NCBI GenBank assembly: GCA_015059095.1
Contig: SVBA01000008.1
Coordinates: forward strand, 21,533-85,532
Reading direction: 5' to 3'
DNA from: Erysipelotrichaceae bacterium
Lineage (GTDB): Bacteria > Bacillota_I > Bacilli_A > RFN20 > CAG-449
Length of the DNA: 64,000 nt
Positions 39,094 through 48,234 of this stretch are shown piece by piece (position 1 is the stretch's first letter; each line of letters opens with the position of its first letter). The notes under the pieces are model-generated. The model was given only the letters and a program-made list of their open reading frames with translations, searched no databases and was not told the origin of the DNA. The translations under genes were made by a program, and so were the position numbers.

Positions 39094-39930
39094 TTATTCT
39101 CCTTTATAAAGTTCTTTTAATAAATTAACTTCATATTTATAACCATCTAATTCGTTTGGAGTTTCTAAATAAATTGGTATTCCTTTAAGTTTAGGATGAT
39201 TGATAATATATTCAATTGCATCTAAACCAATATATCCTTTTCCTAAAACTTCATGTCGATCTTTATGTGCTCCTACAGGATTTTTAGAATCGTTCAAATG
39301 GATAGCTTTTAATCTATCTAATCCAATAATTCTATCAAATTCTTCTAACACTTTATCAAAAGCAAAGACTATATCATATCCTCCATCATGGATATGACAA
39401 GTATCTAAAGTGACACCAAGTAAATGTGATAATTTAACTCCATCAATAATTTCTTTTATTTCTTCAAAACTAGAGCCTACTTCACTACCTTTACCTGCCA
39501 TAGTTTCTAATAACACTAAAGTCTCTTGATCTTCTTCTAAAACTTCATTTAATGCATCAATAATATATTTAATTCCTATTTCTTTTCCTTGACCTACATG
39601 ACTTCCAGGATGAAAATTATACATCGAATTAGGTACTCTTTTTAATATTTTTAAATCTTGTTTAAATACATCAATAGCAAATTCTCTTACACTTTCTTTA
39701 TCTGAACAACAATTTAATGTATAAGGAGCATGCGCTAAAAAAGGACCAAAGTTATTTTCTTTAGCAAGTTCTATAAATTTATTTAAATCTTCTTCATTAA
39801 TTTCCTTAGCTTGACATCCTCTAGGATTTCTAGTAAACCATTGAAATACGTTCCCACCAATATACTTAGTATCATTAAGCATAGAAACATATCCCCCACT
39901 TGAAGAAACATGACATCCAATTTTTAACAT
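39094..39930 (-). CDS. nfo: Endonuclease IV (apurinic/apyrimidinic endonuclease)
   Basis: [14 protein letters not shown]...HAPY...ETMAGKG...HLNDSK match the Nfo pattern. Confidence 0.85.
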
Positions 39931-39991: not shown

Positions 39992-40252
39992 CTAATCGTT
40001 TTGATATTTTTTTGAAAGATCCATCAAATAAACAACAAGTTTTAAATAATATTCCTCTAAATCTTTATTTTTTATTCTTTTTTTTGCTTTATTTAATACT
40101 ATTTCTTCTCTAGAAGCATCTAAAATATCTAAATTATGTTCCTTTTTATATTGTCCAATTGCTTTAGCAATTTCCATTCTATTTTCAAATAGTTCACATA
40201 ATTTAGTATCTATTTCATCAATTTTTTTTCTTAATAATTCTAATTCGTTCAT
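39992..40252 (-). CDS. Chorismate mutase (AroQ class, CM_2), divergent from the aro operon
   Basis: Start ATG 40252 after AAAGGTG; the track start is a GTG inside the SD. LRKKIDEIDTKLCELFENRMEIAKAIGQYKK matches the CM_2 helix pattern. Confidence 0.7.
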   Translation of the reverse strand: MNELELLRKKIDEIDTKLCELFENRMEIAKAIGQYKKEHNLDILDASREEIVLNKAKKRIKNKDLEEYYLKLVVYLMDLSKKYQND

Positions 40253-40465
40253 AAGATTCACCTTTTATATACATAATTTTAACCAATTTTTATGAAAAAT
40301 CCATTGTTTTATTTGATATTAAGAACAATTAGAGTTAAGATAATAACAAGGATGGACAGTATTATGAAAACTCTAATTTTTTCTTCATATTACTTTTATT
40401 ACTTTAGATAGAACCCTATAAAGTATTCTAATAGGATATTTTAGTTTTGAATAGGGTTAGGTAGG

Positions 40466-40493
40466 CATCATTAAAACAAAATGATGTTTTTTT
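40466..40493 (+). terminator. Leader terminator (attenuator) 7 nt upstream of the aroB RBS
   Basis: CATCATT-AAAACAA-AATGATG followed by TTTTTTT. Preceded by two further hairpins (40328-40382 with U-run; 40412-40458). Confidence 0.6.
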
Positions 40494-40510
40494 ATTTAAA
40501 GGAGGACGTT

Positions 40511-41539
40511 ATGGAAATTAAAATCACATTACAAGAAAGTTCATATTCAATATTTACCGGTAGAAATATATTAAAAGATATCGCTTCTTTTTATAATTTT
40601 TCAAGTCACAAAGTATTGATTGTTACTGATTCTAATATTCCTAGTGAATATTATTCTTTAATAAAAGAAAAAATTAATGTAGTTGATACTTTAATTTTAA
40701 GTCCAGGAGAAGATAGTAAATCTTTTAATTCATATTTAAAAATTCAAGAAAAGTTATTAGAACACAACTTTTCAAGAAAAGATATAGTTATTGCTCTTGG
40801 AGGAGGAGTTATTGGAGACTTGGTAGGATTTGCTTCTTCTACATATAAAAGAGGTTTAACATTTATCAATATTCCAACTTCTACTCTATCGATGATTGAT
40901 TCATCTATTGGAGGAAAGACTGCTATTAACTTTAATGGAATTAAAAATGTCATCGGAACATTCTATCAACCTTCTTTAGTCTTAATTGATTTTGATTTAC
41001 TAAAATCATTACCACAAAGACATTTCAATAATGGATTAATTGAAGCTTTAAAAGCAGGATATATCTATGACCCAAGTATTTTAGATTTATTTTCACAAGA
41101 CATTAATTCCAATTTAGAAGAAATTATAATTAAATCAATAATTGTTAAAAAGCATTTTGTTGAAGAAGATGAAAAAGAACAAAATATTAGAAAAATACTA
41201 AATTATGGTCACACTTTTGGACATGGATTTGAATCTCTAGGTGGATTTAATGATAGTTTATATCATGGTGAAGCAGTTGGACTAGGAATGTTAGTAGTTT
41301 CTAAAGACAAAGAAAAATTGATATCTTATTTAAATAAATTAGATATTAAATACGATTTTGAAATATCTTCACAAGAATTAATAAAAATAATACTAAATGA
41401 TAAAAAAGTAGATGGTAAATATATAGATTTAATCTTAGTAGATAATATCGGAGAAAGTTATATTAAAAAAACATCTATTGAAGACTTAGTTTCTATTTTA
41501 GAAGGAGGACTTGAATATGTCAGACGTTTTAGGAAATAG
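40511..41539 (+). CDS. aroB: 3-dehydroquinate synthase
   Basis: Start ATG 40511 after GGAGGA; the track start lies inside the terminator stem. GGGVIGDLVGFASSTYKRG, NIPTSTLSMIDSSIGGKTAIN, HTFGHGFE motifs. Confidence 0.9.
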   Translation: MEIKITLQESSYSIFTGRNILKDIASFYNFSSHKVLIVTDSNIPSEYYSLIKEKINVVDTLILSPGEDSKSFNSYLKIQEKLLEHNFSRKDIVIALGGGVIGDLVGFASSTYKRGLTFINIPTSTLSMIDSSIGGKTAINFNGIKNVIGTFYQPSLVLIDFDLLKSLPQRHFNNGLIEALKAGYIYDPSILDLFSQDINSNLEEIIIKSIIVKKHFVEEDEKEQNIRKILNYGHTFGHGFESLGGFNDSLYHGEAVGLGMLVVSKDKEKLISYLNKLDIKYDFEISSQELIKIILNDKKVDGKYIDLILVDNIGESYIKKTSIEDLVSILEGGLEYVRRFRK

Positions 41540-42582: not shown

Positions 42583-43830
42583 ATGAAGTATGGATTAATT
42601 GGAAAAAGTTTATCTCATTCTTATTCAAAATTAATTCATGAACAATTAGATTCAAAGCCTTACGAATTACTTTCTTTTAGTGAAGACGAACTTGACTCAT
42701 TCTTAAAAACAAAGGACTTTTTAGGAATAAACGTCACTATTCCTTATAAAGAAACTGTAATTAAGTATCTAGATGAAATAGATGAAATTGCTAAAGAAAT
42801 TGGTTCTGTTAATACTATTATAAATACTAATGGATTATTAAAAGGTTACAACACTGATTATTATGGATTAAAGAGATTATTTATTAAATCAAAGATTGAT
42901 GTTAAAAACAAAAATTGTTTTATTTTAGGAAGCGGTGGAACAAAAAACACTGCTTATAAACTATTAAAAGATTTAGGTGCTAAATCTATTCACATTGTTT
43001 CAAGAAATAAATCAAATAACACAATTACTTATGATGAATTAAATAAAAGAGATGATGTTGAAATTATCATTAACACTACTCCAGTAGGAATGTATCCTAA
43101 TATTGAAGGATCATTACTAGATTTATCTTTATTCACTTCTTTAGAAGGAATAGTTGATGTAGTTTATAATCCTTATCAAACTAGACTTGTTACTCAAGCA
43201 AAATTATTAGGAATTAAAGCTATCGGCGGATTAGAGATGTTGGTCGAACAAGGTATAAAGGCTAGTGAATTATTTTTATCTACTCAATATGATTCAACAA
43301 TATTTAATAAAGTATATTCTTCCTTATATTATTCAAGAAGAAATATCATATTAATCGGTTTACCAATGAGTGGCAAAACAACTATTGGTAAAGAATTAAG
43401 TGATAAATTAAATAAAAAGTTTATTGATTTAGACGAAGAAATTGAAAAAGAAACTAATATGTCTATTAATGATATCTTTTCTAAATATGGTGAATCATAT
43501 TTTAGAAAATTAGAAAAAGATATAACTTTAAAATATTCAAAAGAAACAAATTTAGTTATCTCTACTGGTGGAGGAATAATTAAAGATAAAGAAAACATGT
43601 TTAATTTAATGTCTAATGGATTAGTTATTTACTTAACTAGAGATTATGATAAATTAATTTATTCTTCTTCTCGTCCATTAACTAAAACTAAAGATGATTA
43701 TTTAAAATTAAAAGAAGAAAGAGATAGTTTATATAAACTATACTCTGACTATCAAGTTGATAATTCTTCTTCCAAAGAAGAATGTATAAATAAAATTAAG
43801 GAGATATTTTATGAGAGTATTAATTATTAA
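42583..43830 (+). CDS. aroE-aroK: Bifunctional shikimate dehydrogenase (AroE) / shikimate kinase (AroK) fusion
   Basis: N-terminal MKYGLIGKSLSHSYSKLIH ... GSGGTKNTAYKL (AroE). C-terminal RRNIILIGLPMSGKTTIGKELSDKLNKKFIDLDEEIEK (AroK P-loop). Confidence 0.8.
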   Translation: MKYGLIGKSLSHSYSKLIHEQLDSKPYELLSFSEDELDSFLKTKDFLGINVTIPYKETVIKYLDEIDEIAKEIGSVNTIINTNGLLKGYNTDYYGLKRLFIKSKIDVKNKNCFILGSGGTKNTAYKLLKDLGAKSIHIVSRNKSNNTITYDELNKRDDVEIIINTTPVGMYPNIEGSLLDLSLFTSLEGIVDVVYNPYQTRLVTQAKLLGIKAIGGLEMLVEQGIKASELFLSTQYDSTIFNKVYSSLYYSRRNIILIGLPMSGKTTIGKELSDKLNKKFIDLDEEIEKETNMSINDIFSKYGESYFRKLEKDITLKYSKETNLVISTGGGIIKDKENMFNLMSNGLVIYLTRDYDKLIYSSSRPLTKTKDDYLKLKEERDSLYKLYSDYQVDNSSSKEECINKIKEIFYESINY

Positions 43831-46517: not shown

Positions 46518-47355
46518 AGATTTAAATTATTTAGTAGTTGGACTAGGATTAATGGGTGGTAGTGTTGCTAAAGCCTTATCATTAAAAGGTTATCAAGTAT
46601 ATGGATATGATACTAATCTTTCATCAATTGAATTTGGTTACCAAAATGGAATAATTAAAAATAACATAGTTAGTGAAGAATTAATAAAAAATGCTGATGT
46701 TATTATTTTAGGACTTTATCCTTCTATCATTGTTTCATGGATTAAAGAACATAAACATCTATTCAAACAAAATGTATTAATCACAGATTTAACAGGTATT
46801 AAAACAAATATTGTTAATCCAATTCAAAAAGAATTAATTGGGATAGGTGAATTTATATCATTGCATCCAATGTGTGGTAAAGAAACTAGTGGTGTCGAAC
46901 ATTCTAATATTGAGATGTTTAGAGTGGCCAACTTAATTATTGTTCCAACAGAATCAAATTCAAAAGAATCAATTGATTTTGCTAGAGATTTTGGCGAAAA
47001 TCTCGAATTTAATAACATTGAAATCTTATCCATTGATGAACATGATAAAATGATTTCTTTCTTATCTCAACTACCCCATGTTATTGCAGTAGCATTAATG
47101 AATTCTCATGAAAGTGATTCTCTTGTTAGATATACTGGTGACTCATTTAGAGATTTAACTAGAATTGCAAAAATTAATCCTTATCTTTGGAGTGAATTAT
47201 TCATTATGAATAAAGAAAACTTAATTCATGATATTGATGAATTTATTAAAATTATGGAATTACTAAAAGAATCAATTAATAATGAAGATACTGTAGTTCT
47301 TCATTCTTTATTTAAAGAATCAAAAAGAAGAAGAGAAAATTTCGACAAAAAATAA
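46510..47355 (+). CDS. tyrA: Prephenate dehydrogenase
   Basis: RBS AAAGGAG. VVGLGLMGGSVAKAL Rossmann motif. 281 aa. Confidence 0.75.
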   Translation: MNKDLNYLVVGLGLMGGSVAKALSLKGYQVYGYDTNLSSIEFGYQNGIIKNNIVSEELIKNADVIILGLYPSIIVSWIKEHKHLFKQNVLITDLTGIKTNIVNPIQKELIGIGEFISLHPMCGKETSGVEHSNIEMFRVANLIIVPTESNSKESIDFARDFGENLEFNNIEILSIDEHDKMISFLSQLPHVIAVALMNSHESDSLVRYTGDSFRDLTRIAKINPYLWSELFIMNKENLIHDIDEFIKIMELLKESINNEDTVVLHSLFKESKRRRENFDKK

Positions 47356-47356
47356 A

Positions 47357-47377
47357 AAGGGCATTGCCCTTTTTTTA
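47357..47377. terminator. Rho-independent terminator ending the aro operon
   Basis: AAGGGC-ATT-GCCCTT followed by TTTTTT. Confidence 0.75.
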
Positions 47378-47406: not shown

Positions 47407-48234
47407 CTATACAAATTCGTACCTAATAGTGTCTTGTTCTTTGATGATTTTAATGAGATATTTCAATTTTAACTGGTTGTCTTTAAAATCGACTCTTACA
47501 TAATCTCCTTCTTCATTGCTATAAAAAGTGAAATTGTATTCTCTTTCTTTTCCTTCAATCTCACTAGAAAATTCCAATTCTACTACACCAGAGATTGACT
47601 TTTCATAACTTACTTCAGTTTCAAAAACTTCTTGTCCATTTTCGAATTTTGTATAAGAATATTCTTTTTCTCCTTTTTCAGTTTCTTCTTCAATCACAAC
47701 ATAATTTCGATCATCCATTTTTACAACAAATTGAATTTCTTCTTCATTTCCCTCTTTTTCTCTATTGCCTTGAATTTTGTATTCGGTTTCTTCAAGAAGA
47801 ACAATTCCATCTAATCTCCATTCTTTCTCATCAAACTCATCTGTCTTTAATTCTGTCTCATTATAATAGAAATCATATATTTTATTGTCTCCAGATAAAT
47901 CTTGACTAGATATAGTATATGAATATTGATACCCCTCTATTTTTGAATCTTTAATTTCAGATTTCACAACATCTCCAGTAATCATATTTTGCGCTATTTT
48001 AAGATTATTTAATATATTTTCTTCTTCTGCTGTTGGTGATTTACTTCTTCTTATAAAATTACTTTCCATTCCAATAGAAACCGATGAATCAAACGAATTT
48101 AATAATCCAATTCCACCCAAAATAGAATAATCAAAACTATTTTTAAGTGATACTTTAGTATTATTATTTACCTTGCATCCACTTAAAACTAGAATCCCTA
48201 ATAACAGCAAACTTATATTTCTAATTTTTTTCAT
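47407..48234 (-). CDS. Glu/Tyr-rich lipoprotein, paralogous to the ectodomain of the adjacent anti-sigma-like protein
   Basis: MKKIRNISLLLLGILVLSGC lipobox. Acidic repeats (EFSSEIEGKEREYNFTFYSNEEGDY). Confidence 0.5.
   Translation of the reverse strand: MKKIRNISLLLLGILVLSGCKVNNNTKVSLKNSFDYSILGGIGLLNSFDSSVSIGMESNFIRRSKSPTAEEENILNNLKIAQNMITGDVVKSEIKDSKIEGYQYSYTISSQDLSGDNKIYDFYYNETELKTDEFDEKEWRLDGIVLLEETEYKIQGNREKEGNEEEIQFVVKMDDRNYVVIEEETEKGEKEYSYTKFENGQEVFETEVSYEKSISGVVELEFSSEIEGKEREYNFTFYSNEEGDYVRVDFKDNQLKLKYLIKIIKEQDTIRYEFV

Follow-up and report, generated by a model that had tools for sequence, protein, structure and literature searches.

A predicted Tyr/Phe leader-peptide attenuator upstream of the shikimate operon in an Erysipelotrichaceae bacterium

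We examined the leader region that precedes aroB in a 64,000-nucleotide stretch of an Erysipelotrichaceae bacterium genome (assembly GCA_015059095.1, contig SVBA01000008.1, positions 21,533 to 85,532; hereafter the window, whose own coordinates are used throughout). This leader is probably a ribosome-mediated attenuator, which would report the charging of tRNA-Tyr, and secondarily of tRNA-Phe, to the downstream operon aroB-aroC-aroEK-aroQ-aroF-aroA-tyrA. Its sensor would be a short open reading frame (ORF) that was overlooked in a first-pass annotation of the region and whose product ends in SSYYFYYFR. That annotation had proposed a divergent T-box or, failing this, a different attenuation mechanism; the T-box did not survive our searches, while the fallback was borne out, the sensor probably being a Tyr/Phe-rich leader peptide. 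The general idea of an attenuator placed before the whole aro/tyrA operon and responding to aromatic-amino-acid supply is thus supported.

A Tyr/Phe leader ORF ahead of aroB

The leader combines an ORF with a conserved frame and a conserved run of Tyr and Phe codons, and an intrinsic terminator located between this ORF and aroB (Table 1). UAU and UAC alternate at the Tyr positions, TAC making up 50% of the Tyr codons in the leader ORF compared with 13% in the genes of the window, and the stop codon is UAG in 7/7 leaders, compared with a genome usage of 21%. This stop directly abuts (0 nt gap) the 5′ arm of a hairpin, termed hairpin 2. The last Tyr codon lies at stop−9 and the helix begins at stop+3, positions that are identical in all lineages sharing the leader architecture of the window (type II, see below). 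A ribosome covers about 12 nt past its A-site codon, and the geometry is one that would let a terminating ribosome, but not a stalled one, mask the next pairing segment, as in an attenuator. Translation would start from the conserved AAGGAUGGA/AUG, in which a GGA is found 7 nt before the AUG. A longer ORF starting from the ATG at 40292 or 40352 was rejected, as the upstream part is not conserved and, in locus L082, a start at 40352 would not share the frame of the aromatic run.

Comparison with relatives carries the case for this ORF. Orthologous contigs, whose AroB is 71–82% identical to that of the window, retain the synteny of the locus, and 5/6 of their leaders preserve the reading frame with both its start and its stop, as well as the aromatic run and the number of codons (eight) that precede it. 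Codons 3–7, the hairpin loops and the linker before the terminator diverge among these leaders, and the sole length difference within the aromatic run is a 3-nt in-frame indel. Comparison of the closely related strain L215 (943–1203) with the window (40262–40513) revealed 0/252 differences in the leader, compared to 24/1029 (2.3%) in aroB, which suggests either purifying selection across the intergenic region or recent recombination. The N-terminally truncated AroB homologues P0013, P0021 and P0031 gave no usable leaders.

According to our model, transcription would begin near 40348 from a conserved promoter, and a ribosome would load at the AUG at 40364 to translate the 15-codon ORF. When Tyr or Phe is scarce, it would stall on the six aromatic codons with its leading edge at most at the stop codon, leaving the RNA from 40412 onward free, so that hairpin 2 could close. 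When both are plentiful, it would reach the UAG and cover about 12 nt beyond it (40412–40421), keeping the 5′ arm of hairpin 2 unwound. The state of hairpin 2 would then set whether polymerase stops at the weak terminator, with readthrough predicted under starvation and termination under repletion. A further hairpin at the 5′ end of the leader, detected in the RNAalifold consensus of 7 leaders as well as in single-sequence minimum free energy folds, pairs the start-codon region with the Ser-Tyr-Tyr codons, and would be opened by a ribosome positioned on the Tyr codons.

The sigma-70-type promoter was found in every orthologous locus, including those without an ORF, in the form TTGATA/TTGAAA/TTGATT-17-TAATAT, and the predicted transcription start lies at about 40348. 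In the 5′ untranslated region (UTR) of the leader, CAAGGATGGA is invariant in five orthologues. Additionally, a near-invariant block, TCCATTGTTTTATTTGA, overlaps the −35 hexamer both in the window and at the equivalent position in L081–L094, and persists in loci having lost both ORF and terminator; it could be a putative UP element or a regulator site common to the chorismate mutase and aro promoters. The first-pass annotation had counted a further hairpin (hairpin 1) in this part of the leader. An inverted repeat, ATTAGAGTT/AACTCTAAT, is indeed present there, with 9 bp formed by 40329–40337 and 40369–40377, followed by T6, inside a 22-nt, 82% complementary pair (I1); as a regulatory RNA element, however, it was ruled out. 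Its 5′ arm lies in the promoter spacer, between −35 and −10, and would be untranscribed because the predicted start is located downstream, and its 3′ arm is not conserved. By its position and variability, hairpin 1 is most simply a lineage-specific DNA repeat.

In contrast, hairpin 2 and the terminator were recovered at the positions originally assigned to them, and both are conserved in the orthologues. Every orthologue has the outer helix of hairpin 2, although both of its strands have changed in L090. The helix encloses an inner hairpin (40419–40429/40433–40443) and a U-rich 3′ strand (40439–40448), the whole folding at −13.4 kcal/mol. Six leaders share the 3′ strand AGGAYATTTTAGTTTTGAA without any change, and a 25-nt form of it, AGGAYATTTTAGTTTTGAATAGGG, is likewise constant in six leaders while its pairing partner varies. 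We speculate that the invariant U-rich strand following the inner hairpin, which resembles a hairpin-dependent pause signal, might let the ribosome catch up with polymerase. The unpaired stretch before the terminator measures 5–7 nt in the window family and 5–12 nt over all type II leaders. The terminator itself, at −6.6 to −7.4 kcal/mol, is weaker than the gene-end terminators of the window (−10 to −14 kcal/mol), and its stem is invariant while its loop varies in nine orthologous loci. The 251-nt stretch folds at −47.4 kcal/mol (z = −2.58), with 2/200 shuffles equally stable. Two other functions considered for these elements were rejected: a DNA operator formed by CATCATT..AATGATG, whose arm spacing ranges from 3 to 8 nt, and TRAP- or HutP-like UAG repeats, whose spacing is irregular.

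Table 1 Features of the aroB leader, its relatives and the operon end
Feature	Position	Strand	Detail
Conserved block TCCATTGTTTTATTTGATA	40300–40318	+	3′ end is the −35 hexamer; near-invariant in all 12 orthologous loci read, including ones without leader ORF
Predicted sigma-70-type promoter	40313–40341	+	−35 TTGATA 40313–40318, spacer 17 nt, −10 TAAGAT 40336–40341; consensus scan
Leader 5′ UTR with Shine-Dalgarno-like AAGGATGGA	40348–40363	+	GGA 7 nt before ATG 40364
5′ hairpin	40358–40394	+	AGTATTATGAA 40358–40368 (start-codon region) with TTCATATTACT 40384–40394 (Ser-Tyr-Tyr codons); inverted repeat I2, 91% complementary
Leader ORF MKTLIFSSYYFYYFR	40364–40411	+	15 codons, stop TAG 40409–40411; from translation
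Putative regulatory codons TAT TAC TTT TAT TAC TTT (Y Y F Y Y F)	40388–40405	+	Run conserved, N-terminal codons variable
Hairpin 2	40412–40458	+	Outer helix AACCCTAT 40412–40419 / ATAGGGTT 40451–40458, 8/8 complementary (I4)
Purine-rich linker AGGTAGG	40459–40465	+	Sequence variable
Intrinsic terminator	40466–40493	+	CATCATT 40466–40472 / AATGATG 40480–40486, 7-nt loop, T7 40487–40493, two possible extra G-U pairs (I6)
aroB ribosome-binding site AAAGGAGG and start	40498–40513	+	Shine-Dalgarno AGGAGG 40500–40505, ATG 40511; homologues begin at equivalent Met
Bidirectional terminator AAAAAGGGCATTGCCCTTTTTTT	47355–47376		About −13 kcal/mol; separates aro/tyrA operon from convergent gene 47407–48234
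Leader peptide, L086			MKTIKTSSYYFYYFR; aromatic run kept
Leader peptide, L081			MKTYISNSYYYYFR; aromatic run kept
Leader peptide, L082			MKTIFSNSYYYYFR; aromatic run kept
Leader peptide, L094			MKKVSFNSFYFYYFI; aromatic run kept
Leader peptide, L089			MKINHNNSFYFYYFI; aromatic run kept
Leader peptide, L090			MNCILKNTIHFSIIYF; decayed, short aromatic tail only
Type I loci (20)	~110–130 nt upstream of aroB		L010, L013, L014, L016, L018, L021, L022, L026, L027, L030, L032–34, L037, L046–48, L050, L054, L056
Type II members			Window family, Merdibacter L005/6/9, L039, L042, L055, L023

Two leader architectures upstream of aroB

We scanned the 260–450 nt upstream of aroB in 77 related species genomes and found short ORFs with an aromatic tail, whose stop lies 96–127 nt before aroB, in 27/77, compared with 4/77 in an antisense control; the corresponding distance in the window is 102 nt. 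Examples of the predicted peptides are MKTVKYYYYYYFR, MKNVVSNKYFYYYFR, MKRINRYYFYFYFR, MTYIVRFFFFK and MHTSKFYYFYYE. The hosts, mostly of Erysipelotrichaceae type, include Erysipelotrichaceae metagenome-assembled genomes (MAGs), Bulleidia, Solobacterium, Galactobacillus and Merdibacter. Two pattern scans of JGI metagenomes returned nothing in the first case and chance matches only in the second. The leaders fall into two architectures, which we call type I and type II.

In type I, the ORF stop is followed by a GC-rich hairpin with a short U run, a middle segment GGCAUUAUCU(AAA), a spacer of about 20 nt, and a terminator of the form GCCAUAYGG-AUAAUG-CCRUAUGGC, whose stem covaries. Between the middle segment and the 3′ half of the first hairpin, 82% of cells are paired, compared with 35–48% in slid controls; between this segment and the terminator apex the figure is 94.8%, with 4 pairs showing two-sided changes and 0/500 shuffles as good. 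Inspection by eye shows a further pairing, between the 3′ end of the segment and the ORF end UUUAGAUA, for which L013 and L048 carry compensatory changes. Complementarity between leader and terminator exceeded that of shuffled sequence in 20/20 type I leaders (z −2.0 to −4.1). Judged by these alternative pairings, type I is a complete his-like cascade with a covariation-supported antiterminator. A stalled ribosome would allow the first hairpin to form, leaving the middle segment free to disrupt the terminator, while a ribosome at the stop would melt the first hairpin, whose 3′ half would capture the middle segment, so that the terminator could form. Six type I loci scanned against Rfam gave no match at gathering score, and type I looks like a well-defined, uncurated RNA family of Erysipelotrichaceae-type genomes.

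Type II, to which the window belongs, has at 0 nt from the stop an outer helix that encloses an inner hairpin and a U-rich 3′ strand, followed by a 5–12 nt linker and a weak terminator. The terminator stem is usually GCAUC/GAUGC, also in distant type II lineages, and the post-stop outer helix recurs at the same position in L005/6/9, L039, L042, L055 and L023, built from unrelated complementary sequences. This coincidence of place with unrelated sequence is strong evidence that selection acts on the structure of the type II outer helix itself. Type I leaders share with the window their location ahead of aroB, the kind of peptide (e.g. MKNVVSNKYFYYYFR), the ORF end UUUAGAUA(G/A), the succession of codon run, a single further codon, stop and hairpin, and the distance to aroB; they differ in possessing the extra segment GGCAUUAUCU, which has three alternative pairing partners (the terminator apex, the ORF end and the first hairpin) and is lacking in type II.

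Read-out at the terminator and rival explanations

Several results weigh against reading the window as a complete attenuator of this kind. We compared the duplex energy between leader and terminator with that obtained for shuffled sequence, and the window leader displayed no excess complementarity either to its terminator (z = +0.75) or to the linker together with the terminator 5′ arm (z = +0.73); 12/13 other type II leaders were likewise without excess leader-terminator complementarity, and in 11/13 no part of the leader exceeded shuffled sequence. Constrained folds retained the terminator hairpin of the window in each of three settings, namely no ribosome, a stalled ribosome and a ribosome at the stop. 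The classical step in which an antiterminator excludes the terminator is therefore missing from the window, which has the sensor of a classical attenuator without its antiterminator, with hairpin 2 and the terminator not overlapping. Among sister lineages with shortened leaders (AroB 68–71% identical), L083 and L084/85 (positions 2400–2500 of each locus) consist of the promoter, about 25 nt and the same CATCATT..AATGATG-T6 terminator without an ORF, and L087/88, L091/92 and L093 are without any terminator. Because the terminator is weak and stands alone after the promoter in these ORF-less sisters, it is probably leaky, and the module is probably dispensable and quickly gained or lost. Also, translating the AT-rich 64-kb window in six frames yields 6 chance runs of at least six aromatic codons, and since such runs are not rare at its GC content of 26%, the case for the leader ORF rests on the comparison with relatives.

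Individual pairings that could serve as an antiterminator were likewise set aside. When the 5′ UTR GAUG pairs with the terminator CAUC, the net gain amounts to 0.8 kcal/mol for the window as well as for L081 and L082, and to 1.5 kcal/mol for L086; L089 alone shows a strong interaction, its 5′ UTR binding the 5′ arm of the terminator at −14.6 kcal/mol (z = −3.9). Base-pairing of UUAGAUAG, the ORF end, to CAUCAUUUAA reaches −2 to −5 kcal/mol except in L090, whose ORF end together with the helix arm binds the 5′ arm of the terminator at −14.2 kcal/mol (z = −3.2). Both L089 and L090 have a significant antiterminator. A helix proposed by RNAalifold between the ORF end and the U-tract and pre-Shine-Dalgarno region (‘Helix X’) has uncompensated mismatches in L089 and L094 and would form too late for termination, and the pair TACTTTA/TAAAGTA is specific to the window and not conserved. 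The U-rich strand in the interior of hairpin 2 paired with the terminator loop and 3′ arm no better than shuffles. Sequestration of the aroB ribosome-binding site was ruled out by the same shuffle test, in which the leader displayed no excess complementarity to this site.

For the window, a read-out at the terminator would thus follow by analogy with type I, L089 and L090. It could involve weak cooperative pairings, for example of the 5′ UTR GAUG with CAUC once a stalled ribosome releases the 5′ UTR from its pairing with the Tyr codons, an action of the folded hairpin that requires no overlap, whether by steric exclusion beside the stalled ribosome or by an effect on polymerase or NusA, or stabilisation of the mRNA by the stalled ribosome. 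A specific version, which we consider rather doubtful, holds that type II attenuates without any antiterminator base-pairing, hairpin 2 folding only upon a stall and suppressing the weak terminator 5–12 nt downstream, with the U-rich strand as a pause site that would keep ribosome and polymerase in step. The closed helix might tether polymerase and the nascent terminator against the stalled ribosome, or might act on RNA polymerase or NusA in the manner of a put hairpin.

Stabilisation of mRNA by stalled ribosomes is known in Bacillota, and the peptide could sense Tyr/Phe to this end alone, a ribosome held up about 40 nt into the transcript shielding the mRNA from 5′-to-3′ decay (ermC/ermA-type), while the terminator would be either a leaky attenuator that acts constitutively or a stem-loop that stabilises the 5′ end. 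The undetectable antiterminator of the window, the low stability of its terminator and the existence of relatives with a terminator alone would all fit; however, such protection leaves unexplained both the post-stop helix that begins right at the stop in every type II lineage and the invariant strand of hairpin 2, and type I relatives, as well as L089 and L090, clearly use regulated termination, which together make this explanation unlikely. It is less probable still that hairpin 2 is the site of a trans-acting factor, a protein or small ligand controlling the terminator, with the ORF incidental or secondary. Sequence-specific recognition is suggested by the invariance of AGGAYATTTTAGTTTTGAATAGGG opposite a variable partner strand, by the invariant terminator stem, and by GCATC/GATGC recurring in distant type II lineages. 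Nevertheless, no Rfam family matched, the motif has a single occurrence in the window and none elsewhere among the 214 loci retrieved, and L090 is without the conserved strand; the other type II lineages combine a different hairpin 2 sequence with the same ORF geometry, as would be expected of a structure sensed by the ribosome rather than of an aptamer. That there is no regulation at all, the ORF having arisen by chance in AT-rich sequence and the hairpins forming a constitutive leader structure, would accord with the chance aromatic runs counted above and with the loss of the leader in some relatives, but we regard it as very improbable in view of the frame, run, start and stop kept across orthologues with an in-frame indel, the 27/77 sense against 4/77 antisense ORFs at a fixed distance from aroB, the covariation in type I, and the leader that did not change between strains while aroB did.

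The T-box riboswitch, in which uncharged tRNA-Tyr, -Phe or -Trp would bind a Stem I specifier and stabilise an antiterminator, has next to no chance of being correct, even though T-boxes are the usual aromatic-amino-acid sensors of Bacillota and the string AATAGGGTTAGGTAGGC located 5′ of the terminator partly resembles their consensus. Searching the whole window with cmscan (Rfam 15) at gathering score returned tRNA only, with no match to the T-box model RF00230. A relaxed search of 40200–40560 at E ≤ 10 with all 4227 families gave three chance matches, none of them a T-box, a riboswitch, Phe_leader, Trp_leader, His_leader or Leu/phe leader. This absence is meaningful because the identical search recovers T-boxes in related loci, at 113–117 bits in L012, L025 and L029 (3/16 related loci; gathering score 93 bits). 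Of the resembling string, only ATAGGGT is conserved, and it belongs to the 3′ arm of hairpin 2, which accounts for ATAGGGTT entirely; the bases after it vary among six orthologues (TAAACGAGG, TAACGAGG, TAGTAAG, ATGGTA), and the 14-nt T-box sequence is not present. Also, a leader of about 165 nt, counted from the predicted start, leaves no room for both Stem I and an antiterminator; its transcript ahead of the terminator is only about 120 nt, half of it ORF. T-boxes likewise control amino-acid genes of Bacillota by tRNA charging through a terminator and antiterminator, but they sense uncharged tRNA through Stem I and the T-box bulge, features that the window leader does not have.

The T-boxes recovered in the related loci (L012:3592–3828, L025:3616–3852 and L029:3597–3803, minus strand) stand beside aroB in Lachnospiraceae-type relatives, where they control the divergent gene.

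Known leader peptides and the genomic setting

Amino-acid-sensing leader peptides have long been known in Proteobacteria and Actinobacteria and are considered rare in Bacillota, whose regulation relies mostly on T-boxes, riboswitches and RNA-binding proteins and whose RNA polymerase is thought to run ahead of, and uncoupled from, the ribosome. The window leader shares with E. coli trpL, pheL-pheA and hisL (Rfam Trp_leader, Phe_leader and His_leader) a short ORF containing consecutive codons for the end product, a stop placed so that a terminating ribosome would cover the next segment, and a terminator just before the first biosynthetic gene; its stall and stop geometry matches that of trpL. 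It differs from them in its low-GC Bacillota-type host, in its mainly Tyr codons, in having no sequence or covariance-model similarity to them, and in a ribosome-sensed hairpin that does not overlap the terminator and comes without a 2:3 antiterminator.

Leader-peptide attenuators have been noted as unusual in Bacillota (PMC2965389), and His leader peptides have been predicted in B. cereus, Peptostreptococcaceae and six Erysipelotrichales species (PMC9413887). In our literature search, neither the two architectures nor any Tyr-rich leader peptide ahead of aroB in Erysipelotrichales turned up. The closest published analogues are aroR-aroF of Corynebacterium glutamicum and the candidate uORFC-13-1 of Acholeplasma. 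In the former, the aroR leader peptide (Phe-Tyr-Phe) controls the aroF operon, encoding 3-deoxy-D-arabino-heptulosonate-7-phosphate (DAHP) synthase, by ribosome stalling and is reported to respond to Phe, not Tyr (Neshat et al. 2014, as summarised in PMC11802643). It shares with the window mixed aromatic codons and an operon that includes DAHP synthase, but it belongs to Actinobacteria, is unrelated in sequence and has a 3-codon run, whereas the window family has 5–6 codons, is Tyr-dominated and includes tyrA in the operon. The latter lies upstream of aroF, with 24 representatives that have a promoter, a ribosome-binding site, a start codon and U-rich Phe codons, directly upstream of an intrinsic terminator and with ‘another base-paired substructure’; that paper works out no mechanism for it (Brewer et al. 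2021, PMC8632094). The likeness to the window leader is qualitative, by description only, and comprises an upstream ORF, an adjacent terminator, extra pairing, a shikimate-pathway gene and an AT-rich host related to Erysipelotrichales; aroF takes the place of aroB, and Phe rather than Tyr is emphasised.

Taken with the window's own lineage, the 27/77 genomes point to a widespread, uncurated Tyr/Phe leader-peptide family before the shikimate operon of Erysipelotrichales-like bacteria, which would be a natural test bed for ribosome-polymerase coordination in Bacillota. In the subtype of the window, a conserved sensor geometry meets a terminator that is structurally insulated from it, which suggests either a non-canonical coupling or an output other than termination. 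Such leaders would be better annotated as attenuators than as T-boxes or hypothetical small proteins.

Pfam matches agree with the gene context originally described, a chorismate mutase divergent from a shikimate/tyrA operon. On the plus strand, aroB is followed by aroC, an aroE-aroK fusion, aroQ (class II dehydroquinase), DAHP synthase (aroF), aroA and tyrA (prephenate dehydrogenase), genes that overlap or sit at most 14 nt apart, and a strong GC-rich terminator after tyrA closes the operon; the minus-strand gene divergent from aroB encodes a type II chorismate mutase (CM_2). The convergent gene beyond the operon (47407–48234) has no Pfam match. The organism is an uncultured, low-GC bacterium of Bacillota type. 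The closest named relatives of AroB come from ‘Bacillales’ and Erysipelotrichaceae MAGs, and none of the GTDB species genomes exceeds 68% identity.

The ORF list places the start of aroB at 40481 (40481–41539), as the terminator 3′ arm ATGATG opens a frame through the T-tract (MMFFYLKEDV) that is in frame with aroB. This upstream start is probably unused, given that the frame relation is not kept in the orthologues and that it is without a Shine-Dalgarno sequence; an AUG is present in the terminator 3′ arm of every type II leader.

In the fusion gene (42583–43830), a shikimate dehydrogenase N-terminal domain and a shikimate kinase are joined in a single 415-aa protein, and the fusion is kept in the orthologous contigs. 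Beside the chorismate mutase, at 39094–39930 on the minus strand, lies a gene for a xylose-isomerase-like TIM-barrel protein (AP_endonuc_2), whose synteny with the aro locus is kept in every relative; as the fold includes dehydroshikimate dehydratases, the protein might be connected with the pathway. Finally, the stop codons of the 52 long ORFs of the window are TAA in 41 cases, TAG in 11 and TGA in 0, and, as far as the window shows, TGA is avoided rather than reassigned, as it neither ends nor interrupts any long ORF.

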